From NCBI GenBank assembly GCA_031552765.1, contig JAVBME010000011.1:4178-68177 (forward strand): DNA of 64,000 nt. Reading direction: 5' to 3'. The notes beneath the pieces were generated by a model that did no database searches, was not told the DNA's origin, and worked only from the letters and a program-made list of their open reading frames with translations. The stretch comes from Acidaminococcales bacterium. GTDB taxonomy: Bacteria; Bacillota; Negativicutes; Acidaminococcales; JAISLQ01. Within the stretch, counting starts at the first letter, position 1, and every line of letters begins with the position of its first letter. Below are positions 442-53,095 of the stretch, one piece after another. A program made the position numbers and the translations under genes.

Positions 442-1866
442 ATGGCTAAAATAGACAAAATAAATACTTTCTTCAATATGCTGCTCAATCCCAAAGGAGT
501 CTCCTATAGCATCCTCACATCCATACCAAATCCCATGATAATCGCCGACAGCAATGGTAAAATACGCCTTGTCAACGAAAGATACATTAAGCTGGTTAAC
601 TGCCGGGAAGAAGACCTTTTAGGAAAAAACCTGGCCGAAGCCCGCCCCGGCACCAACCTGCAACAAGTCATAGAAACCGGACAAACCAGAACAGACCTGT
701 TGAGTAAAACCATATCCAATGCCATAGTCGACATGTCCATACCGCTTTATTACAAAAACCGGCTGGTAGGCGGAATATCTTTTTTGAAAGACAACAACCG
801 CATCTTCCAGTTGCACAAAAATCTTGAAGCGGCAATAGCATTAAACGAAAATCTTTCCTTAGAGTTAAAATCCTTTAAAAACAATGTCTATGCGGCAAAA
901 TATACCTTTCAAGATATCGTGGGAAAATCAAACAAATTTCTCAAAGCTGTGGCTTTTGCCAAAAAGATTGCCTCTTATGACGCCGATGTTTTGCTTATTG
1001 GCGAAAGCGGCACCGGCAAAGAGTTGTTCTCGCAGGCTATCCACAACCATAGCCAAAGGCACGGAATGCCATTCATCCCGGTAAACTGTTCCACTTTTAC
1101 GGCCAATCTTGTAGAAAGCGAACTTTTTGGCTACGAACCCAATGCTTTCACCGGCGCTGATAAAAACGGCAAAGTCGGCCTTTTTATGATGGCGGACAAA
1201 GGCACTATAATGCTTGACGAGATAGGCGACCTGCCATTCGATATGCAGGCCAAACTCCTGCGCGTCCTGCAAGAGCGCAAAATACGGAAAGTCGGCAGTT
1301 CCGTGGAAACGCCGCTCGACATCAGAGTTATAGCCGCCAGCAACAAAGACTTGTCTTTACTGGTAAAAGAAGGCGCCTTCCGGGAAGACCTTTACTACCG
1401 CCTGTCCATGCTCACCCTTAAACTGCCAAGCCTGCGCGAGCGCATGGAAGATATCGAGATCCTGGCCGATGCCCTTTTGACCGAATGGAATATAAGGTAC
1501 GGCCGGGCAGTAAAATTTTCCAGCAAGGCTTACAAAGCTCTTTTCAGCAGGGAATGGCCGGGAAACATACGCGAATTGAGAAACGCCGTTTTCTTTGCCG
1601 CTTACACTTGCGACTGCGACATAATAAACGACCTGCCCGCACAGGCAGCGCATTCAACGCTGAAAATAGAGCCGCTGGCCGCAGAAGAACCTGATATCGA
1701 AGAAGAAAAGCCGCTGAAAGAATACGTCGAAGAATACGAACTCAAAATAATCCGCCTCATGTTAAAAAAATACGGCGATTCATTGGAAGCCAAGAAAAAA
1801 ATCGCCGAAAAATTAAAAATATCTTTGCCCACTCTCTATAACAAACTTAAAGCAACCGGGCAATGA
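442..1866 (+). CDS. sigma54-dependent transcriptional activator (PAS-AAA+-Fis HTH)
   Basis: Walker A GESGTGKE, ESELFGY..NAFTGA, Walker B MLDEIG, FREDLYYRL, WPGNIREL, C-terminal HTH and N-terminal PAS-like region. Confidence 0.95.
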   Translation: MAKIDKINTFFNMLLNPKGVSYSILTSIPNPMIIADSNGKIRLVNERYIKLVNCREEDLLGKNLAEARPGTNLQQVIETGQTRTDLLSKTISNAIVDMSIPLYYKNRLVGGISFLKDNNRIFQLHKNLEAAIALNENLSLELKSFKNNVYAAKYTFQDIVGKSNKFLKAVAFAKKIASYDADVLLIGESGTGKELFSQAIHNHSQRHGMPFIPVNCSTFTANLVESELFGYEPNAFTGADKNGKVGLFMMADKGTIMLDEIGDLPFDMQAKLLRVLQERKIRKVGSSVETPLDIRVIAASNKDLSLLVKEGAFREDLYYRLSMLTLKLPSLRERMEDIEILADALLTEWNIRYGRAVKFSSKAYKALFSREWPGNIRELRNAVFFAAYTCDCDIINDLPAQAAHSTLKIEPLAAEEPDIEEEKPLKEYVEEYELKIIRLMLKKYGDSLEAKKKIAEKLKISLPTLYNKLKATGQ

Positions 1867-1906: not shown

Positions 1907-2884
1907 TCAGCTAAAGCCAAAAGGCAATTTGCCAGCGCTGGCGGCAAATGACCACAACTGGCGCCCGGTTATCTTTTCCGTCATCCTGCCCAATGAGAAG
2001 GTCTTGTCTACATCTATGCCCGTTTCTATGCCCATTCCGTCCAGCATGGAGACAAGGTCTTCCGTACAGACTAAGCCGCTACGCCGGGCGTGGACGTAGT
2101 ATTCGCCTGTACCGGGAACGGGTACACGGTCTATTATGTTGGCCGGCTGCCCGCCCAGGCCGCCCAAGGTGCTTTCAAAGTTTTCTACCCCGGCCAAAAG
2201 GGCGGCGTAGTAACAGGCTAAACCAGCGCCGCGCGAGTCATGGACGTGAAAGATGTGCAGCTTCGGGTCAGGGTATTTGTCCATAACTTTGGCGAAGTAT
2301 TCATAGGCCCTGTCCGGCGTCGCTTCCCCGTCGTGGTCAGCATGTTCTATGTCGTCTACGCCGATTTCCATATACCTGTCGGTAAAGTCCCAGGCTTTAC
2401 CCAGTTCCATCTTGCCGACAAAAGGACAGCCAAATATAGTGGTAACTGTCCCGCAGACTTTTAGCCCGGCGGCGTGGGCGGCTTTTACCGCCTGTTTATT
2501 AAAGGACCAGGCTTCTACATGTGTTTTGCCGGAGTTGGCTTTATGGTGTTGTTCGCTGGTAGAGGTGTTGAGCAGTACCCGGTGGATGTTGGCGCCTTCT
2601 TGTTTTAGTTTTATTGCTCTGTCCAGTGCGCGCTGGTTGATGGTAACGGCTGTGAACTCCACATCTTTTGCCGCCGGAAGTTTTCTGATCAGTTCGTCGG
2701 CGTCGGCAAACTGGGGCAGGTTTCTGGGGTTAGCTAGATTGGTCACTTCTACATGTTTAAAACCGGCTTCGATGAGTTTTTCTATGACGTACAGCTTAGC
2801 CGCCACCGGGATATAGCTCTCTTCTCTCTGGAAGCCGTCTCGCGGCGTCAGGTCGTGTATGTGTACTTTTTTCGGCAGTTTCAT
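1907..2884 (-). CDS. HMG-CoA-lyase-family (DRE-TIM) acyl-CoA lyase, atypical
   Basis: TPRDGFQ, FGCPF, HVHDSRG and TEDLV..L..MGIETG motifs are present; the GGCP motif reads GGQP. Confidence 0.85.
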   Translation of the reverse strand: MKLPKKVHIHDLTPRDGFQREESYIPVAAKLYVIEKLIEAGFKHVEVTNLANPRNLPQFADADELIRKLPAAKDVEFTAVTINQRALDRAIKLKQEGANIHRVLLNTSTSEQHHKANSGKTHVEAWSFNKQAVKAAHAAGLKVCGTVTTIFGCPFVGKMELGKAWDFTDRYMEIGVDDIEHADHDGEATPDRAYEYFAKVMDKYPDPKLHIFHVHDSRGAGLACYYAALLAGVENFESTLGGLGGQPANIIDRVPVPGTGEYYVHARRSGLVCTEDLVSMLDGMGIETGIDVDKTFSLGRMTEKITGRQLWSFAASAGKLPFGFS

Positions 2885-2942
2885 AAAATCATCTCCTTCA
2901 CATGGTATAGCTTTTTCATGTTACGGACTGGCGATGGTCCTT

Positions 2943-3719
2943 TCATTTACCTGTCCAGACAGGTTGTCTTTTTTCAAAAAAAGCGGCTACTCCCTCTTTG
3001 CTGTCCTGGGTACAGGCATTGATCACCAACATATCCGTCAGATAACTAAAGGCAGCATAATAGTCCATGCCGGCCATATTGTAGAAACTTTCCTTCCCCA
3101 GTCGCAAAGCCGAAGGGCTGTGCCCGGCTATCTTTTCCGCCAGTTTCATCGTCTCTTCTTCCAATTTGTCCGCCGGCACAACCTTATTAGCCAGCCCCCA
3201 CTCCAAAGCTTGCTGCGCAGTTATATTGTCGCCGGTAAAAAGCATCTCCAGGAGGATTTTTCGCGGCATCAATTTACTTATAGGATTCATCACATTGTAA
3301 GCGAATAGCCCGCGTTTTATTTCCGGCAAGCCGAGTATGGCGTCTTCCGCCATCACCGTCAAGTCCGGCGCTGTCGCCAGGCCAAATCCCCCGGCCAAAG
3401 CAAAGCCGTGCACCTGCGAAATAAGCACTTTGCCGATTTTAGACATGGCGGTGAGCGTTTTTATCAGACCGCTCTTATTTTTTTTGCTGTCCATGATGCT
3501 TTGCCCCGGGATCAAAGAATCGAGTTCCGCGCCTGCACAAAAGCCCTTGCCGGCGCCGCTCAGCACTATGACCCTGGTATCGTCCTCTTTATCCAACAGG
3601 TAAAGGGCGTCGGCTATCTCTTCAAGCATTTGCCCGGTAAGAGAGTTTCTTCGTTCGGGGCGATTGAAGATTATCCTGGCTATTTTTCCTTTTTCTATGA
3701 TTATAGATTGATATTCCAC
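2943..3719 (-). CDS. Enoyl-CoA hydratase/isomerase (crotonase family)
   Basis: NRPERRN, FCAGAEL, VHGFALAGG, LPEIKRG and EGVAAFFEKR motifs. Confidence 0.92.
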   Translation of the reverse strand: MEYQSIIIEKGKIARIIFNRPERRNSLTGQMLEEIADALYLLDKEDDTRVIVLSGAGKGFCAGAELDSLIPGQSIMDSKKNKSGLIKTLTAMSKIGKVLISQVHGFALAGGFGLATAPDLTVMAEDAILGLPEIKRGLFAYNVMNPISKLMPRKILLEMLFTGDNITAQQALEWGLANKVVPADKLEEETMKLAEKIAGHSPSALRLGKESFYNMAGMDYYAAFSYLTDMLVINACTQDSKEGVAAFFEKRQPVWTGK

Positions 3720-3737
3720 TTGTATTACCCTCCTTAA

Positions 3738-5018
3738 CTACATGCGGTTAGGCAGCCACGTTACAATTTCAGGAAATGCTATAAAAAGAACCAGCGATAC
3801 TACGCAGGCCAGCATCAATATCAGCGATCCTCTGAATGCCGTGCCCAACTGTATTTTCCCTACAGAACTCACGATAAATACATTAAGGCCTACCGGCGGC
3901 GTGACAAGCCCTATCTCCACGAGTACGATCGTAATGACGCCAAACCAGATCGGGTCAAAGCCCAGCGCTTGCACTACCGGAAATACCATTGGCAAAGTCA
4001 GCATGAGTATGGCTATCTGGTCCATGATACATCCTAACGCCAGATATAAAGCCACCAGCATGAGCATTACCACCCAGCGGTTTACTTCCATGTTGGAAAT
4101 AAACTGTACTATTGACTGTGGTATCTGGCTCATAGTAAGGTAGTATCCAAAAATAGTGGCGCAGATAATGATGACAAAAATAGTGCCGCTGGTATTTATA
4201 GTGGATATTACCGCTTTTTTTATCCCGTCTTTATTCAGCCGCCTCATGGCAAGCCCGATGAGCAAAGAGCCGAGAGCGCCCACGGCAGCGCTTTCCGTCG
4301 GCGTGGCAAAACCGGTGTAGATAGAGCCTATGACCAAAACAAAAAGCACCAATACGGGAAAGATGGCTTTTATAGTAGCAAATCTTTCCTCCCAGGAAAA
4401 AGGCGGTATGACCGGGCAAAGCCCCGGCGTCACTTTTACCCACAGTATGATCGCCGCAGCCAAAACCAGTGTAGCGATGATACCGGGAATAAGTCCGGCG
4501 ATGAGCAGCTTGCCGACCGAAGTCTCGGTCGCCGTGCCGTAGATTATCATTGGTACGCTGGGCGGGATGAGTACCGCCAAAGTACCGGCCACCGCCACCG
4601 AACCGGCGATAAGGTCATCGCGGTATTTCAGTTTTTGCATCTCCGGCACCACAACAGACGACATCGCTGCGGCAGTCGCCGTGCTCGAGCCGCACATAGC
4701 GCCAAAGCCGGCATTGGCGAATACCGTAGCAATGGCAACTCCACCGGGAAAATGGCCAAACCATTTATAGGCCACTTGAAAAACGTCTTTTGTTATATTT
4801 GAATTAGTGATAAAACCGGCCATCAAAATGAACAGCGGTACAGTGGTCAATGTGTAATGAGCCGCGCTCCGGAAAGGCGATGTGCCCAAAATACCCAGGA
4901 CGCTGTCCAGCCCGCCGATCATCCACACGCCCGCAATGCCGGTTATGCCCATAGCAAAAGCCACCGGCAAGCCGATCATCATAAGCAAAAGCATCATTGC
5001 CAAAGGCAGTAATACCAT
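3738..5018 (-). CDS. TRAP transporter large permease (DctM)
   Basis: Hydrophobic 426 aa with GSSTATA, LIPPS, TPTESA and TPPVGLN motifs. Confidence 0.95.
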   Translation of the reverse strand: MVLLPLAMMLLLMMIGLPVAFAMGITGIAGVWMIGGLDSVLGILGTSPFRSAAHYTLTTVPLFILMAGFITNSNITKDVFQVAYKWFGHFPGGVAIATVFANAGFGAMCGSSTATAAAMSSVVVPEMQKLKYRDDLIAGSVAVAGTLAVLIPPSVPMIIYGTATETSVGKLLIAGLIPGIIATLVLAAAIILWVKVTPGLCPVIPPFSWEERFATIKAIFPVLVLFVLVIGSIYTGFATPTESAAVGALGSLLIGLAMRRLNKDGIKKAVISTINTSGTIFVIIICATIFGYYLTMSQIPQSIVQFISNMEVNRWVVMLMLVALYLALGCIMDQIAILMLTLPMVFPVVQALGFDPIWFGVITIVLVEIGLVTPPVGLNVFIVSSVGKIQLGTAFRGSLILMLACVVSLVLFIAFPEIVTWLPNRM

Positions 5019-5044
5019 AAATCTGCTTCCTCCTTGCGCAATTA

Positions 5045-5539
5045 TTAGTGTTCTACATGCAGCCGGCCCAGCAGCATTTGTATAGAGCGGATGCTGGCCA
5101 ACACAGTACCGATAGTTACCATCATATAAGCGGGCGCCATGGGATAGGCCAATGCCGAAGCGCTGTGCTCGCTATGCCTGATCGCTTCTTCTACGACAGG
5201 TATAGAACACCATGCTATAGATAAAAACAGTATCAAGCCGACAAAAGTATTCACTGTGGCCAGTTTCTTCTTTAAGCTTTCCGGAAAAAACCTTTCCAGC
5301 AATTCTACCTTTATATGCCCGCCCTTGACGTATACATAACTAAAAGGCATATATATTATGGCCACCATCAGATACTCTTCGCTAAATTCCAAAACGCCGG
5401 TCAAAGGAGCGCGGAAAAAATAGCGCAAAATAGTATCCAAACTGGTCAGCAGCATCAAAATGATCAACGCGGCGCCTGCAACAAAAAGGCAAGCCAATTC
5501 TATGTTATCTATAATGCTTTTCTTGTTTTCTTGCTCCAT
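5045..5539 (-). CDS. TRAP transporter small permease (DctQ)
   Basis: About 4 TM segments and a GHIKVE motif, between dctP and dctM. Start moved to the ATG after RBS AAGGGG. Confidence 0.9.
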   Translation of the reverse strand: MEQENKKSIIDNIELACLFVAGAALIILMLLTSLDTILRYFFRAPLTGVLEFSEEYLMVAIIYMPFSYVYVKGGHIKVELLERFFPESLKKKLATVNTFVGLILFLSIAWCSIPVVEEAIRHSEHSASALAYPMAPAYMMVTIGTVLASIRSIQMLLGRLHVEH

Positions 5540-5609
5540 ATTATTCCCCTTTAAGTCCGCCCGCCCCGGCAAATAAAACAGACTGCCGGAGCGGCGGTTA
5601 TTGGCCTTG

Positions 5610-6689
5610 TCATTTCTTGGCGTTTAGCTTTTTCTCTATATCGGTTACCTGGGCGATGGTAGCGTCAAGCACTTTTTGCGCCGGCAACCCTTTTGCGCTT
5701 TGTGTTTTCACCCAGTTTTGCACCACAGGGTCGGTCGCTTTCCTAAAAGCTTCTTTTTCCGCAGCATTGAGCGTATATACTTTCATCCCGGCCGCTTCAT
5801 ACTTTTTCTGATATTCTTCGGCCGCTTTGGTCATATGGTCACCCAGCATGATGGTCGCTTCCAACCCGCAGTCAAGCATTATTTTCTGTAAATCTTTAGG
5901 CAGGCCGTTCCACACCCGTTCATTTATACAATATACGCCTACCCATCCATTCATATTGACCCCTTTAGTGGCGAACTTCAATACTTCCTGCATTTTATAC
6001 TGGTCGAGCGCTTCGAAAGCCAGTACGCAACCGTCGACCGTTCCGCGTAGCGTCGCTTCATACATCTCTTGCGGTATTATGCTGACCGCCGCTCCGCCCA
6101 TAGCGGATATGCCCATTTCAGCAGACACGCCGGGTACTCTGAAGCGCATACCTTTTACATCAGCCGGCGTTTTGATGAATTTGCCGGAAGAAGTATTATA
6201 AAAAAGGTCGTTCGGGTTATAGGCCAGGTTGAATACCGGGCGGATCTTATGTTTTTTGAACTCTTCATCGTACAGTATGCCCTGACAAAGATGCCAAAAC
6301 GCTTCCGCCCCGACGCGCGAGGTAGGATAGATGCCAGGCAAGTCGAAAACATTGCTCAGAGGCACCTTGCCGCTTACATAAGCCGGACCGACGACGGCCA
6401 TATCGGCAACGCCGTTTTTCACCAGTTCGATCATATCTACTTGCTTGCCCAACTGGCCGCCCGGGTAGTGCTCAAATTTTATCCGTCCGTTTGATTTTTG
6501 TTCCACCAACTGCATAAATTTATTTAGTCCGTTTACAGTAAACATGTGTTGCGCGGGAAAAGCGTCAGCTACCTTCAATTTGTACACTTTGCCGTCGTCT
6601 TTTGGTTTGGGCGCATCTTTGGAGCCGCCGCAACCGCTAAAAAGTAAAACCAGGCTCATCATGGCTACGAAAAGAATTCTGCTTTGCAA
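5610..6689 (-). CDS. TRAP substrate-binding lipoprotein (DctP)
   Basis: Lipobox FSGC; YPGGQLG, DVKGMRFR and GTVDG motifs. Confidence 0.93.
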   Translation of the reverse strand: MQSRILFVAMMSLVLLFSGCGGSKDAPKPKDDGKVYKLKVADAFPAQHMFTVNGLNKFMQLVEQKSNGRIKFEHYPGGQLGKQVDMIELVKNGVADMAVVGPAYVSGKVPLSNVFDLPGIYPTSRVGAEAFWHLCQGILYDEEFKKHKIRPVFNLAYNPNDLFYNTSSGKFIKTPADVKGMRFRVPGVSAEMGISAMGGAAVSIIPQEMYEATLRGTVDGCVLAFEALDQYKMQEVLKFATKGVNMNGWVGVYCINERVWNGLPKDLQKIMLDCGLEATIMLGDHMTKAAEEYQKKYEAAGMKVYTLNAAEKEAFRKATDPVVQNWVKTQSAKGLPAQKVLDATIAQVTDIEKKLNAKK

Positions 6690-6760
6690 AATAATTCCCC
6701 CTTTTGGTTAGTAGTGCCAAAAACCACATCACACAAGGCTTTTAGCTTGCGAATAAGATT

Positions 6761-6777
6761 AGCAAGAACAGTGCCAA
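6761..6777 (-). promoter_or_regulatory. sigma54 promoter for dctPQM-hydratase-lyase operon
   Basis: Minus strand reads TTGGCACTGTTCTTGCT. Confidence 0.88.
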
Positions 6778-6787
6778 AAAGTAAATT

Positions 6788-6828
6788 AAAAAGCCAGCGC
6801 TGAATAAGGCTTCAGCACCGGCTTTTTT
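6788..6828. terminator. Intrinsic terminator downstream of the second TRAP operon
   Basis: Stem AAAAGCCAGCGCTGAA...TTCAGCACCGGCTTTT flanked by A/T tracts. Confidence 0.65.
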
Positions 6829-6926
6829 AAACTTAGAAATATAAATATTCAATAAATTTTGTTCTAAATATTTTTAATAAGCTGTGAACAGTGAGGCAAC
6901 AGCTTCCCGCCAAGATAACGGCACTT

Positions 6927-7952
6927 TTATTTTTGGCTGTCCATAACTTTTTTCAGGTAATCTTCACCAATAGACTTGCCCAACTTTTCATAAACCGGCT
7001 GTACGGCCTTTAACCATGCCGCCCGCTCTTGCGGCGTCATAACATGAACCTTTCCGCCTTTTTGTTTTATCTCGTCTATCGCTTTTTTGCTTGCCTCCAC
7101 TACTACTTCATGGTGTTTTTGCTCAGCTGTTTTTATGTGTTTCATCACTTTTTCGCGAATATCGGCAGGCATGCCGTCCAAAAATTTCTTGTTTGCCAGT
7201 TGCGTTATCGCCGTGGAGTGGATAAAGGTATCGAGGTAGTACTTGGTTACTTCAAACAGGTTCCTTTCCTTTACCGAAATCGGCCCTATATCCGCTGCGT
7301 CTACCATACCGCGCTGCATAGCTATAAATATGTCGCCGGCCGGAAGGTCTACCGGCGAGGCCCCTACCGTCATCCAAATCAATGAGCCGTCGCCCAGGCT
7401 GCGCACTTTCATACCCTTGGCGTCAGCTGGCAGTTTTACTTCTTTACCGTTGGTTATTATGCTATATGGCCCTGTAGCAGCCGAGGCCAAACAAACTATG
7501 CCTTTCGCTTCCAGCGGTTTGAACAGTTCCGCCGCCAGAGGCCCGGTCAGGAATTTGTTCATCGCGACAACATCTTGAAAAAGAAAGGGAACATCCAAAA
7601 CGGTTATTTTCGGACTGAGGGCGGACAGGTACCAGTTGGCCAGAGAAATCATCTCCACGTCGCCCCTGGCTACCGCATCCAACGCTTCCGCCGGTTTGTA
7701 AAGTTGTGATGCCGGGTAAAGCTTTACTGTAACTTTTCCTTTGAGCTCCGGGTCGGCGTCAACCAGTTTTTTGAAAGTCTCCGGTACGACTGACATGGTA
7801 CCGTTGGCCGGCATATCATAAGACCACCTTATTTCTGTTGCCTTTCCCGTAGGCGCCGCCTTTTTATCAGCGCCGCCGCAACCGGCCAGTAAAGAAAGAA
7901 CCGATGTTATTACTAAAAGCAAAATGATTTTTTTCCCTTTTAACATGTCCAT
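6927..7952 (-). CDS. TRAP substrate-binding lipoprotein (DctP), second system
   Basis: Lipobox LAGC; LYPASQL, DAKGMKVR and MQRGMVDA motifs. Confidence 0.93.
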   Translation of the reverse strand: MDMLKGKKIILLLVITSVLSLLAGCGGADKKAAPTGKATEIRWSYDMPANGTMSVVPETFKKLVDADPELKGKVTVKLYPASQLYKPAEALDAVARGDVEMISLANWYLSALSPKITVLDVPFLFQDVVAMNKFLTGPLAAELFKPLEAKGIVCLASAATGPYSIITNGKEVKLPADAKGMKVRSLGDGSLIWMTVGASPVDLPAGDIFIAMQRGMVDAADIGPISVKERNLFEVTKYYLDTFIHSTAITQLANKKFLDGMPADIREKVMKHIKTAEQKHHEVVVEASKKAIDEIKQKGGKVHVMTPQERAAWLKAVQPVYEKLGKSIGEDYLKKVMDSQK

Positions 7953-8012
7953 TTCATATCCCCCTTTAATAATTTGAACCGTTTTTCCAAAACGGCCTTG
8001 ACCTCAAACTGA

Positions 8013-9290
8013 TCATACGCGGGCCGGCAGCCAGGTACTAAGTTCAGGCACCATAATGATGACCGCCAGTACAAATAACATGACTATTACATAAGGTACT
8101 GCGCCTTTGGCCACTTCGGACACCGGCGTGCCGGTAGAGCCGGAGAGAGCGAAAAGGTTCATGCCGATAGGCGGCGTTATTGTCCCTATCTCCATGTTTA
8201 TGGTATATATTACCGCAATATGGAGAGGATCAAATCCCAACTGGATAAGCACCGGATAAAGTATCGGTATGGTCACCAGCATTATGGAGATGACGTCCAG
8301 CAAGCAGCCTAAAACCAGCAAGAGCACATTGACAGCCAGCATAAAAGCCAGCGGCGGCAGACCAATGCTCATTATCCAGTCGATGATCTCGTTCGAGACC
8401 TGGCTTATAGTGATTATATAGGCAAACACCATGACGCCGCTGAAAACTACCATGATCTGCGATGAAGCGACCGCCCCTTCGGCAAAAATCTCCGGCAGAG
8501 CGCTTAATTTTATTGTCTTATAATAAAACAGCGTGATCAACAAACAATACGCCACGCCTACGGCAGCGCTCTCATCCGCGGTAAATATGCCGCCGTATAT
8601 GCCGCCTATAATAATAACCGGCGCTAATATTATCAAAAAAGACTCACGGAAAGTTTTTAACATTTCGGCCAACGAGACGCTTTCATAAGTCGGTTTGCTG
8701 ACCCTTTTTGGCCCGGCCCAAAAATAAGTAAAAACAGACAGCGCCAGCGTTGCAAAAACACCCGGCGCCAGGCCGGCCATAAAACACTTGCCGATAGACT
8801 GCTCGGTTATACTGCCATAGATAATCATGGTCAGGCTTGGCGGGATGAGAATGCCCAGCGTACCGCCCGTCGCCAGTATACCGCAAGTAAATCCCCTGTC
8901 ATAGCCATATTTGACCATGTAGGGCAAAAGTATCATGCCTAAAGCCGCCGCGTTGGCAAGGCTTGACCCGCTTATTGCCGCAAATACCGCACTGGTCATT
9001 ATCGCCGCTACGCCAAGGCCGCCGCGCAGGTTTTTAAATACGCTGTTGGCAAATTCAAACATGTATTTGACCAGCAGGCCCTTGGACATGATGACGCCTA
9101 CTACAATAAAGAGCGGCAACGCCACTAAGGAAAAATTGTTTAACGAGCTGTACATTATATGTGAAATAGTAGTGATCGAAGAAAAATCAAACAGGTAAAA
9201 ACAAATGGCTGAAGTAAGAGCTGCGCTGAACGCCACAGGAAAACCTGTTATGAGGAAGAAGAGAAAAATCAGCAAAACACTTAAAATCAT
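8013..9290 (-). CDS. TRAP large permease (DctM), second system
   Basis: ISGSSLA, GGTLGILIPPS and TPPIGMNLF motifs. Confidence 0.95.
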   Translation of the reverse strand: MILSVLLIFLFFLITGFPVAFSAALTSAICFYLFDFSSITTISHIMYSSLNNFSLVALPLFIVVGVIMSKGLLVKYMFEFANSVFKNLRGGLGVAAIMTSAVFAAISGSSLANAAALGMILLPYMVKYGYDRGFTCGILATGGTLGILIPPSLTMIIYGSITEQSIGKCFMAGLAPGVFATLALSVFTYFWAGPKRVSKPTYESVSLAEMLKTFRESFLIILAPVIIIGGIYGGIFTADESAAVGVAYCLLITLFYYKTIKLSALPEIFAEGAVASSQIMVVFSGVMVFAYIITISQVSNEIIDWIMSIGLPPLAFMLAVNVLLLVLGCLLDVISIMLVTIPILYPVLIQLGFDPLHIAVIYTINMEIGTITPPIGMNLFALSGSTGTPVSEVAKGAVPYVIVMLFVLAVIIMVPELSTWLPARV

Positions 9291-9793
9291 TCCTCACGCA
9301 CCTCCTTTCCTGCGGTACGTATCTTGTCTACAGTTTCTGAAAAAAGTTCAAGAAACCTCATGGTAAACAAGCTTCCGCCCAATGGCATTATCATATACGG
9401 CAGCCAAAGAGGCGTTTTGGCTAAAGATGTCGATGTTACCCCGGTAGCATAGGCGTGCATGGTCAACTGCAAACCGCTTATCAGCAATATCATGCTAAAA
9501 GTTATACCTAAAACAACATTGAATAAATCAAAATAATTTTGCCATTTTACCGGCAAGAGGTCTACCACCACTGAAAGGCGTATATGTTTTCCTGTTTTCA
9601 ATACCTGGCTGGCGCCAAGAAAAGTTGACCAGATAGTGAAAAATATGATGTATTCTTTAGCCCAGTAAAATGAAGTATTGAAGCCCAGCCGTGCGATGAC
9701 TTCGATAAAAGTTAGGATAAACGCACCGGCAATAGTTAACATTGCCAGCTTTCTTTCTGTTTTGTCCCATATCCCGATTATTGCTTTAAACAA
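9287..9793 (-). CDS. TRAP small permease (DctQ), second system
   Basis: About 4 TM segments, KHIRL motif, 4-nt overlap with dctM. Confidence 0.9.
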   Translation of the reverse strand: MFKAIIGIWDKTERKLAMLTIAGAFILTFIEVIARLGFNTSFYWAKEYIIFFTIWSTFLGASQVLKTGKHIRLSVVVDLLPVKWQNYFDLFNVVLGITFSMILLISGLQLTMHAYATGVTSTSLAKTPLWLPYMIMPLGGSLFTMRFLELFSETVDKIRTAGKEVREE

Positions 9794-9874
9794 TCTTTGA
9801 CCTCCTCCCTAAAAACTGGATTAATTAAGTAAATTAAAAATTATCACCTCCAAATTATTGCACAAAAAAAATAA

Positions 9875-9890
9875 AGCAAATTGCATGCCA
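9875..9890 (-). promoter_or_regulatory. sigma54 promoter for the dctQMP operon
   Basis: Minus strand reads TGGCATGCAATTTGCT, with correct GG-N10-GC spacing. Confidence 0.85.
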
Positions 9891-10044
9891 TTTTACTAAA
9901 ACAATATTTTATCTTTGTAATATAGCATTTAAAAGTTTTTTCAACAGGTAATTTTTCTCTATTTTTATAAATTATTTTAAAATATTTTAATTTTTCGAAT
10001 ATTTTAAAATATTATTTTTATTTAAGTAAAATAGAATGTTGTAG

Positions 10045-10076
10045 AAAATAAAAAACAGCTGTTTTTCAACAGCTGT
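10045..10076 (-). terminator. Intrinsic terminator closing the candidate ncRNA
   Basis: Minus strand ACAGCTGTT-gaaa-AACAGCTGT followed by TTTTTATTTT. Confidence 0.75.
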
Positions 10077-10088
10077 AAATAAACAAAC

Positions 10089-10345
10089 GGAAGACGCTTT
10101 TTCCCGCCATTCACTTGTCCGATGGATTCCATCACCGCGACTCGGGCGCTCGCCCAACTTTACCTGGCAAAGCATCTTCCGCTTATATAGTCCGCCTTCC
10201 TATTACCTGCCGGCAATTCACTAGGAGATTTTACAGGCTTTTCTTTACCCGGCTGCCTGTGTAGCGAACTCTTTAGGTCGGCGCCTAATGTCCTAAGGTT
10301 TACCAAGCTACCGCCTGTCCCTTTTTCCGAAGCGCCCTTCCTAGC
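10089..10345 (-). ncRNA. Candidate stand-alone structured non-coding RNA (~255 nt), family not recognised
   Basis: GC-rich island in AT-rich intergenic DNA. The 5' end GGAAGGGCGCTT pairs with the 3' end AAGCGTCTTCC, there are several internal hairpins, and it has an upstream sigmaA promoter and downstream terminator. Confidence 0.7.
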
Positions 10346-10351
10346 AATTAC

Positions 10352-10380
10352 AGTATAGCATCTTTTAAATTATTTGACAA
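10352..10380 (-). promoter_or_regulatory. sigmaA promoter of the candidate ncRNA
   Basis: TTGTCA (10380-10375), 17 nt spacer, TATACT (10357-10352), with extended -10 TG. Confidence 0.8.
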
Positions 10381-10405
10381 TAGCATTTTAATAATATTTT
10401 TCTCA

Positions 10406-11170
10406 TTATTTTTGTTCGTAATGTAACATATGGTTGCGCAAAGCAAGAAATACGTCTTCCTCCAGCAGATTGTCATCCAATATCGCCTTGACAAGTTTTC
10501 TGTAACCCATATCATACACCATCATATACACCAGCTTATTTAGATAGTTATCTATATGCCTTTTCTTCTCGCCCAGAAAATACATGGAACATACGCCCAG
10601 CGTTACCACTGTTTCTCCCTGTTCCTGGTTTATTTTACGCAAGTCCACCTTGCCTAATATATCATTTAGTTCCTGCCAGCGCTTGCCGTCCAACACGCCG
10701 CGCCAGGCAAAAAACTGTTCGATGAGAGTTTTGGCGCGCAGCAGAGAATCACGCGCCGACAAGGATAGCCCTGTCTGCAACAGCTTGGCGCTAGCTTCGT
10801 AGCCTACGTCTTCGCGCAAAACCGCAGCCCGGGCCTCAATAAAATCGGTGGCATTTTTACAGCCGGCCTGCTCCGCCACCTTGCCGAGAAATTTTTGCCA
10901 GAGCGGTTTGCTGGCAACCTCAGCCTCAGATAATTTATCCCGCCAGACAAACAATATGCCGTCGGCAAGCATGTCCTCAGTAAAAACAGTTTCCCGTCCT
11001 TCATCCAGTGCAGATAACGCGGGCCCATAAACCAAAAATGGCAACCGTTCCCGGCCGCCGGCCGCCAATCCGTCCAGCAGAGACAGTTGCGGCGAATAAT
11101 CCTGCCAAGCAATAGCATAGGAGGTTTTAACTGCAAAACCAGTTTCTTTTTGGCTGTGTGTCATATCCAT
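10406..11170 (-). CDS. Hypothetical protein (helical, possibly TPR-like)
   Basis: 254 aa ORF 6 nt downstream of cvfB with RBS GAGGAG; no motif recognised. Confidence 0.7.
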   Translation of the reverse strand: MDMTHSQKETGFAVKTSYAIAWQDYSPQLSLLDGLAAGGRERLPFLVYGPALSALDEGRETVFTEDMLADGILFVWRDKLSEAEVASKPLWQKFLGKVAEQAGCKNATDFIEARAAVLREDVGYEASAKLLQTGLSLSARDSLLRAKTLIEQFFAWRGVLDGKRWQELNDILGKVDLRKINQEQGETVVTLGVCSMYFLGEKKRHIDNYLNKLVYMMVYDMGYRKLVKAILDDNLLEEDVFLALRNHMLHYEQK

Positions 11171-11176
11171 CTATTT

Positions 11177-12055
11177 TTACTCCTCTGCGCCGGACTCCGC
11201 TACCAACACCGTCCAGCCGTCTTCTTGCCTTATTGTTCCTTCTTTCAGCAGGCGGCCGAGAGCACGTTTGAAGGCCGCTTTGCTGAGCTGGAACTTTTCC
11301 CTGACGATGTCTGGCGGCGTCGCGTCGCCATAAGGCATACGGCCCTGGCGCCCTTTTAAATAACCGATTATCTTTTCAGCGTCTTCGCCCATGGCCGTTT
11401 CTTTTTGCGGACGCCGGGAAATGTTTATCCGCCCGTCCGGGCGGATAAAGGCGATACGGCCCTTTACCTCTTCGCCCATTTTCAGCATGCCGCCGCCTGC
11501 CTCATCCTTATGCAAAAATGCTATATATCCTTCTTCTGTAAACAACAGCCAGCCGTCATCGAGGTCGTTATAGACCCAGCCTGTGACTTCCTGCCCAACC
11601 CGCGCGCCGGCAGCCGGTTTAGACATCGCTTTTAGTTCTTCTTCCACTTTCATGGTCACAGCCTGGCGCCCCGTTTTGTCTCGGTACAGCTTGACCCACA
11701 CCGTTTGGCCGCGCATTACTCGCCCGCGCATCTCGCTGAACGGCAAAAAGACGCCTCGTTCGGCGCCGATACTGACAAAAGCCCCTTGTTTGGTGACATT
11801 TATCACCGGCATACGCCCGACTTCCCCTTCTTTGAGGGTAGCCAAACGCATACTGGCCGCCAGACGTTTTTGCGGGTCAAGATACAGCGACACAGGCACG
11901 ACGTCCCCCACCTCGACCGATGCTGTCTGCTGCGCCAGGTGCAGCAGGATATCGTCTGAAGTATTGCCTGTACCGGCGTCCAAAAACGCCCCTATGGCGC
12001 TTTGCCTGACTACTTTCATCAAATATTCGCCGCCAGGCTGGTATTTACTGTTCAT
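11177..12055 (-). CDS. cvfB: CvfB-family S1 RNA-binding protein
   Basis: Repeated S1-like segments (GAFLDAG, GAFVSIG) and C-terminal winged helix LSKAAFKRALGRLLK. ATGA overlap with the rsfS stop. Confidence 0.85.
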   Translation of the reverse strand: MNSKYQPGGEYLMKVVRQSAIGAFLDAGTGNTSDDILLHLAQQTASVEVGDVVPVSLYLDPQKRLAASMRLATLKEGEVGRMPVINVTKQGAFVSIGAERGVFLPFSEMRGRVMRGQTVWVKLYRDKTGRQAVTMKVEEELKAMSKPAAGARVGQEVTGWVYNDLDDGWLLFTEEGYIAFLHKDEAGGGMLKMGEEVKGRIAFIRPDGRINISRRPQKETAMGEDAEKIIGYLKGRQGRMPYGDATPPDIVREKFQLSKAAFKRALGRLLKEGTIRQEDGWTVLVAESGAEE

Positions 12056-53001: not shown

Positions 53002-53026
53002 AATTTATTACACCTCCCTTGACTGT

Positions 53027-53095
53027 AGACTCGCCAGATGTGGTAGTCCTATACGGACATTTAAAAACCTCTCCGCGCGGTTGCCCCATAAGGAG
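53027..53095 (-). ncRNA. Ribosomal protein L21 leader
   Basis: Minus strand ...GCAACCGCGCGGAGAGG...CATCTGGCGAGTC directly upstream of rplU, matching the recalled L21-leader pattern. Boundaries approximate. Confidence 0.7.

Follow-up and report, generated by a model that had tools for sequence, protein, structure and literature searches.

The intergenic element at 10045–10380 of the analysed 64,000-nt stretch of an Acidaminococcales bacterium genome (the window, to which all coordinates refer) gives rise to a genuine, highly expressed, 3′-processed and lineage-specific orphan small RNA that is known from one genome. We consider it probable that the element is a free-standing, lineage-specific sRNA gene on the minus strand, from which a transcript of ~300 nt would be made and then processed at its 3′ end to yield a mature RNA acting in trans. 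The preliminary description of this DNA, made from its letters alone, had proposed a possibly undescribed large class of non-coding RNA; this reading is unsupported by the data presented below.

The genes upstream of the element encode a LytR-family protein, RsfS, CvfB and a 254-aa protein without a family, and those downstream encode the TRAP transporter components dctQ-dctM-dctP, a second TRAP set, an enoyl-CoA hydratase, an HMGL-like protein and, at 442–1866, a PAS/AAA+ sigma54 activator. No gene overlaps the element, and the open reading frames inside it extend to at most 62 codons. Its principal features are as follows.

10352..10380, minus strand: promoter of sigma-A type, with a -35 element TTGTCA (10380–10375), a 17-nt spacer and an extended -10 element TG-n-TATACT (10360–10352).
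10101..10345, minus strand: abundant RNA species of ~236–245 nt seen in contigs of run X2, with its 5′ end at 10344/10345 and its 3′ end at ~10101 (major) or 10110 (minor).
10045..10076, minus strand: intrinsic terminator located by a terminator scan, with a 9-bp stem and 4-nt loop (10076–10055) and a T-run to ~10045.

In a consensus scan the promoter agreed with the sigma-A consensus at 10/12 positions and carried the TG extension, its -10 hexamer TATACT lying at 10357–10352. The near-consensus minus-strand promoter reported in the preliminary description is therefore borne out, as is the intrinsic terminator that it had placed at 10076–45, and the start point that it had predicted near 10345 agrees with the end of a high-depth RNA contig at 10344, 8 nt past the -10 hexamer. 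The same description had called the element a GC-rich block. This is true relative to the downstream intergenic flank (18.8% G+C) but not relative to the genome (49.3%), so that the block, at 52.5% G+C, is better seen as an island of ordinary composition inside a very AT-rich spacer than as GC-rich per se.

Transcription was assessed with one public DNA run (X1) and two metatranscriptome runs (X2 and X3) from a single study labelled invertebrate gut. X1 is the probable source of the assembly, and X2 and X3 come from the study that also yielded the probable source sample. Assembled contigs of these runs were placed on 9300–11300, each carrying one mean word depth; data of this kind cannot establish where a transcript starts or ends, its strand or its abundance, and the RNA signal comes from one run of one study. 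A contig of 239 nt from X2, with a word depth of 4479, spanned exactly 10110–10344 with no differing letters. A second X2 contig (61 nt, depth 450) covered 10101–10139 and then continued into 22 non-genomic letters, and a third (43 nt, depth 5.65) stopped at 10110 with 13 non-genomic letters attached. We take the letters joined at 10101 and 10110 to be library adapter, which would mean that RNA molecules end at ~10101 and at 10110. The discrete transcript that the preliminary description had suggested looking for is thus found at contig level, bounded at 10344 and 10101/10110, and the abundant RNA of ~236–245 nt lacks both the 3′ arm and the terminator, its 3′ end falling ~55 nt short of the terminator T-run. 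The length of ~255 nt given in that description does not hold for either form, the primary transcript being ~300 nt, while the existence of the RNA itself does.

The flanking genes were also represented in X2, by contigs on dctQ/dctM (9300–9624, depth 3.2) and cvfB (11063–11300, depth 3.9). These contigs, of 416 and 431 nt, had 0 differing letters, which indicates that the organism's own mRNAs are present in this run. Measured against the contig depth of these adjoining mRNAs, the RNA accumulates to a level roughly 1000 times higher. No X2 RNA contig was placed on 9635–10100 or 10372–11041, a gap in contigs that is not proof of absence, and the DNA run X1 was flat across 9300–11300 at a word depth of 25.1; given this flat DNA depth and the bare flanks, carry-over of DNA does not explain the local RNA peak. 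No contig of X3 was placed on 9300–11300, which is likewise not proof that the RNA is absent from that sample. Together, the promoter, the terminator, the intergenic position and the discrete contig are what generally identifies a free-standing bacterial sRNA gene, here at contig level and in one run.

The contigs themselves are strandless, and the minus strand is favoured by inference, because the minus-strand promoter fits the contig end, because the terminator functions on that strand only and because the minus strand gives the better fold (-77.3 kcal/mol for the 245-nt RNA versus -56.1 kcal/mol for the plus strand). Promoter-like sites found on the plus strand by consensus scan fitted neither contig end. 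On the minus strand, the abundant RNA contains a 48-codon frame running from a TTG at 10306 to a stop at 10160–10162, and the RNA might on this account be the mRNA of a small protein. The frame lies open within 10101–10345, and a weak purine-rich stretch precedes the TTG. Against this, the start codon is a TTG with a poor ribosome-binding site, and openness over 48 codons is unremarkable, being expected for ~9% of frames in a base-frequency estimate. In addition, none of three frames (62, 48 and 49 codons) had an exact peptide in a collection of 15 billion proteins, and an mRNA would not typically be ~1000 times as abundant as the mRNAs beside it. We therefore regard a coding role as very unlikely and prefer to read the RNA as a non-coding sRNA.

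The position of the element ahead of a transporter operon raises a different alternative, namely that it serves the downstream TRAP operon as a cis-acting leader (riboswitch or attenuator), the abundant RNA being the product of premature termination. Several features are shared with such leaders: the element has a promoter and a structured segment, lies upstream of a transporter operon on the operon's own strand and ends in an intrinsic terminator. Terminated leaders can also accumulate. The operon, by contrast, has a separate candidate promoter of its own, located past the terminator.

9890–9876, minus strand: sigma54-type motif TGGCAT-N5-TTGC upstream of dctQ, read in the sequence.

Between the terminator and dctQ lie ~250 nt of 18.8% G+C DNA together with this motif, which agrees with the sigma54 promoter claimed at 9890 in the preliminary description. 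The genome contains a sigma54 gene, and the activator gene at 442–1866 (plus strand) encodes a sigma54-interaction domain. In a relative from the same family (G003), the same sigma54-type motif precedes the orthologous dctQ with no RNA element upstream; there the TRAP operon follows groEL (recognised by eye from its C-terminal Gly-Met repeat), with an AT-rich spacer of ~500 nt between. Orthologues of dctQ were found in 3/5 genomes, and the element was upstream of none of them. Furthermore, the abundant RNA stops ahead of the T-run rather than at it, and no contig covers the terminator; the terminator hairpin stands isolated from the rest of the molecule in both the minimum free energy (MFE) and centroid folds, where no antiterminator pairing competes with it; and none of the riboswitch families matches the element. 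At contig level, expression of the RNA is independent of the TRAP operon, since the depth of 4479 is limited to 10110–10344, flanking genes are at 3–4 and the deep contig ends at the predicted start point. These data uphold the earlier claim of a free-standing RNA rather than a leader, and a leader function appears highly improbable.

Two further observations concern the operon itself. The sigma54-type motif heads a long minus-strand cluster at 1907–9793, in which dctQ-dctM-dctP is followed by a second set in the order dctP-dctQ-dctM and by the enoyl-CoA hydratase and HMGL-like genes. The PAS/AAA+ sigma54 activator gene is situated at the far end of this TRAP cluster, on the plus strand.

The predicted fold of the free-standing sRNA differs between its primary and abundant forms. 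The primary transcript is predicted to form three multi-hairpin domains followed by the terminator, in both the MFE and centroid structures. The 311-nt stretch reached -110.1 kcal/mol (z -3.72), and 0/100 shuffles were as stable. By contrast, the 245-nt species, at -77.3 kcal/mol, lay close to its shuffles (-73.4 +/- 4.4 kcal/mol; z -0.89), 35/200 of which were equal or better. The excess stability thus resides in the precursor, and the description of the RNA as highly structured stands for the 311-nt primary transcript but not for the mature 245-nt species. The dominant element of the precursor is a long helix, whose two strands are listed here.

10169..10186, minus strand: 5′ strand of the 18-bp helix, RNA positions 160–177, without a partner in the mature RNA.
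10083..10100, minus strand: 3′ strand of the 18-bp helix, RNA positions 246–263, present in the primary transcript only.

At 18 bp, this was the longest helix in the fold; the longest helix in shuffles measured 11.0 +/- 1.6 bp, and 1/150 shuffles reached 18 bp. In the ensemble, the 3′ arm (246–261) paired with the internal segment 162–177 at a probability of ~1.0. This tells against the end-to-end terminal stem of the preliminary description: such a stem can be written, but the arm that it needs pairs internally and is absent from the abundant RNA. Other hairpins named in the same description fared better, with ACAGGC/GCCTGT, CCTA..ATTGCC-GGCA-GGTAAT.AGG and TTGGGC-GAGC-GCCCGA all present in the MFE structure and GATGG/CCATC in the centroid structure. 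The 3′ strand of the 18-bp helix sits immediately past the observed 3′ end of the RNA, and when the 245-nt RNA was refolded its last helix (199–202/240–243) stopped 2 nt before the 3′ end, the state expected from trimming back to structure. The mature 245-nt RNA is purine-rich (63% A+G). An internal duplication was not significant (p ~0.5). The pentamer GGUAA occurs 4 times in the RNA against 0.62 expected, with a p of ~0.001 that is uncorrected for all 5-mers, and it was not counted as evidence.

From these features we infer the following route of maturation. Transcription would start at ~10345 and end at the terminator at ~10048, giving a primary transcript of ~300 nt in which the 18-bp helix would form between positions 160–177 and 246–263. 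The 3′ strand of this helix and the terminator would then be removed, most likely through cleavage by an endonuclease within the helix or close to it, after which the new 3′ end would be trimmed to 2 nt past the next helix. RNase III, which the genome encodes along with Hfq, may be connected with the proposed cut; against its involvement, the enzyme normally severs both strands, here near position 170, yet one contig spans this site. The product would be a stable, purine-rich RNA of ~245 nt in which segment 160–181 becomes newly single-stranded. Such a mature RNA would most likely be a regulator in trans, acting by base-pairing through the exposed segment or by binding a protein and titrating it, two modes between which the sequence does not decide.

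Candidate targets were sought within the genome. The best short own-genome matches to the RNA were chance words inside coding regions, and none was a convincing target; a cluster of 14–18-nt own-genome matches to RNA positions 233–258 consisted of purine-rich words in unrelated coding sequences. Predicted duplex energies with five neighbouring gene starts were within background, at fractions of 0.35–0.96 of 400 random windows.

To compare the RNA with described families, the element was scanned with Rfam 15 (4227 models), whose scope takes in raiA, OLE, GOLLD, ROOL, HEARO, riboswitches, T-box and self-cleaving ribozymes as far as these are included. No model matched the element at gathering scores, and the RNA matches no described family. 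In the window as a whole, the single match at gathering scores was a ribosomal protein L21 leader (RF00559) at 53017–53092 on the minus strand, with 44 bits versus a gathering score of 36. At E values up to 10 over 9900–10500, two sub-threshold matches (20.7 bits versus a cut-off of 40, and 16.3 versus 49) fell on the terminator palindrome, on the plus strand. The earlier exclusion of tmRNA, RNase P, SRP and 6S RNA also held, because these RNAs were found elsewhere in the genome and none at the element: 6S RNA on contig C47 (110.3 bits), the large SRP RNA on C3 (99.9 bits) and RNase P RNA on C7 (304.7 bits). On another of its contigs, ARAGORN gave two overlapping tmRNA calls, c[1833,2152] and c[2060,2407], one standard with the tag AEDNFALAA and one permuted; the permuted call is probably an artefact of the standard one.

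Several well-characterised RNAs nevertheless share individual properties with the element RNA. 6S RNA is abundant, stable and ~200 nt long, has its own housekeeping-type promoter and has its ends matured by processing. The element RNA is likewise abundant, of the ~200-nt scale, equipped with its own promoter and processed; unlike 6S RNA, it gave no match to RF00013 within 9900–10500 at E values up to 10 and is predicted to fold into three domains, not into a rod with a central bubble. Identity with 6S RNA was rejected on these grounds, given that the genome has its own 6S RNA elsewhere and that the predicted fold of the element RNA is not rod-like. The CsrB/RsmZ RNAs offer another comparison, in that the element RNA is very abundant and rich in purines, carries 10 GGA motifs in 245 nt and comes from a genome with a csrA gene. 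Unlike in CsrB/RsmZ, most of these motifs lie in predicted stems or junctions and few in hairpin loops, there is no Rfam match, and the GGA count is close to that of 1000 dinucleotide shuffles (6.8 +/- 1.85; p 0.075). On these figures, a role as a CsrA sponge gains no clear support.

With species-specific trans-acting sRNAs, the element RNA has in common its own promoter, an intrinsic terminator, an intergenic location, a narrow distribution and the presence of an hfq gene. It is longer than most trans-acting sRNAs, and unlike them it yielded no target; Hfq-dependent sRNAs, moreover, usually keep the terminator hairpin and U-tail, whereas the abundant element RNA has lost both. The raiA motif and other orphan structured RNAs of Firmicutes (PMC10861870) resemble the element RNA in their length of a few hundred nucleotides, in free-standing organisation, in coming from a Firmicutes-type lineage and in having no assigned function. 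Broad conservation together with covariation is what marks out such classes, whereas the element RNA has no Rfam match on its own strand at E values up to 10, no detectable relative and ordinary stability in its mature form. Among the Negativicutes motifs in the published passages that were compared, SLH and ldh2 sit in other gene contexts. A match to a candidate published without a name and absent from Rfam is unlikely, because no homologue of the RNA was found anywhere searched.

This question of relatives bears directly on whether the RNA could represent, as its first-seen member, a conserved and hitherto unrecognised class of large structured non-coding RNAs of the kind of raiA or OLE, with relatives that have diverged or been undersampled. 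BLASTN against its own genome returned the element itself only. Among 61 relatives, 2 gave a match, one being the window itself and the other a 32-nt stretch inside a 321-codon frame of G011. Across 401 genomes of the class, 44 had short matches at E values up to 0.1, all of them chance-like, reaching at most ~46 nt in length and a best non-self E value of 0.004. When 113 fetched loci were searched with nhmmer, the lowest E value was 0.75. Two covariance models were also used, R1 (160 nt, 44 bp) and R2 (106 nt, 34 bp), both built on a single sequence and hence weak detectors. R1 gave the window itself a score of 206.8 bits; its other results were one match of 16.4 bits in 61 genomes, two matches in five further sequence sets, both in coding frames, and a best score of 14.6 bits in 79 loci. 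R2 recovered the window itself only in 40 genomes. A scan with a loop-plus-junction pattern over the genomes of 185,579 species produced 0 matches, as did a phage collection, and a plasmid collection produced two weak ones, with E values of 0.09 and 0.3, at the AT-rich end where the promoter lies. The collection of homologues proposed in the preliminary description thus came up empty by BLASTN, nhmmer, covariance models, pattern scan and synteny alike, leaving the suggested class with a single member.

In favour of a new class, the RNA has a very high abundance, defined ends and no Rfam match, and sampling of its lineage is sparse, with 4 other genomes in the family and a closest CvfB that is 75% identical in the genomes searched and 62% at best in metagenome contigs. 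Against it stand the empty homologue searches, which amount to absence of evidence and not to proof, single-sequence models being weak detectors, and the ordinary stability of the mature RNA (z -0.89). Since no homologue was found, there is no evidence of selection on the sequence or structure of the RNA. A single genome, an absence of covariation and a mature form of ordinary stability add up to an orphan sRNA rather than to a new class, and membership of a conserved class seems to us distinctly unlikely. A more speculative extension, which we also hold to be unlikely, is that the RNA founds a new kind of RNA expressed at housekeeping level, within a deep and barely sampled lineage of Negativicutes, in which removal of the helix strand and loss of the terminator would unmask a 20-nt segment for binding protein or mRNA, and whose occurrence in sister species would be hidden because these are unsequenced. 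The reading as a lineage-specific sRNA gene remains the one we prefer.

The genes on the upstream side were then considered, as RsfS, CvfB and the adjacent hypothetical protein had been named earlier as candidate protein partners of the RNA. In relatives (G001, G002 and G004), cvfB is followed by other genes and by no such RNA, with a flagellin-like gene next in G001 (recognised by eye from its N-terminus) and an acyl-CoA dehydrogenase-like gene next in G002 and G004 (by eye). A partnership with RsfS or CvfB is therefore not upheld, adjacency being the sole link. In G001, the closest family genome, whose CvfB is the 75% identical one, the downstream flagellin-like gene has a long purine-rich leader. 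The hypothetical protein is itself an orphan, and nothing further than adjacency ties it to the RNA.

10406–11170, minus strand: gene of the 254-aa protein, without a family, a singleton cluster.

This protein belongs to no Pfam, NCBIfam or PADLOC family and had no relative in 61, 401 or 147 genomes, in genome contigs or in viral contigs. Among 1.84 billion representatives, 11 matches including itself were obtained, the closest being 43% identical and located on a 3465-nt contig; in some matches the 254-aa protein aligned to the C-terminal half of proteins of 436–459 aa. Its predicted model, a confident one (pLDDT 87.4), has a small N-terminal sheet followed by helical repeats, and the model returned 0 PDB matches at E values up to 0.001; TPR proteins came out on top, with E values of at least 0.06. 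In its isolation the 254-aa protein comes close to the RNA. Within its gene, in antisense orientation, window positions 10488–10515 (plus strand) hold the sequence TTGACA-16-TATCAT, which agrees with a sigma70-type consensus at 11/12 positions; no RNA contig was placed there.

The shared isolation of these two neighbours invites the interpretation that the RNA is a functionless by-product, namely a stable transcript driven by a strong promoter that arose by chance or was acquired recently, within a lineage-specific insertion that also carries the orphan gene. Consistent with this, none of the relatives searched has either the RNA or the 254-aa gene beside it, synteny differs on both sides within the family, and the mature RNA shows no stability beyond that of shuffles. 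On the other hand, a near-consensus extended -10 promoter, a clean terminator, an 18-bp helix and a very high RNA level, when found together, resemble a maintained gene, and the G+C content of the block, set against that of the genome, gives no compositional sign of foreign origin. We judge an origin as a by-product to be rather unlikely, and retain the maintained, trans-acting sRNA gene as the probable explanation.

Known from one genome and showing no sign of selection on its sequence or structure, the RNA can neither found a new class nor settle a long-standing question. The suggested maturation, in which one strand of a long helix would be discarded together with the terminator, is of interest in itself. 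The biology of small RNAs in Negativicutes is almost unexplored, and, if functional, this RNA would be among the transcripts that an uncultured bacterium of the invertebrate gut makes in the greatest amounts, while standing outside every described family.
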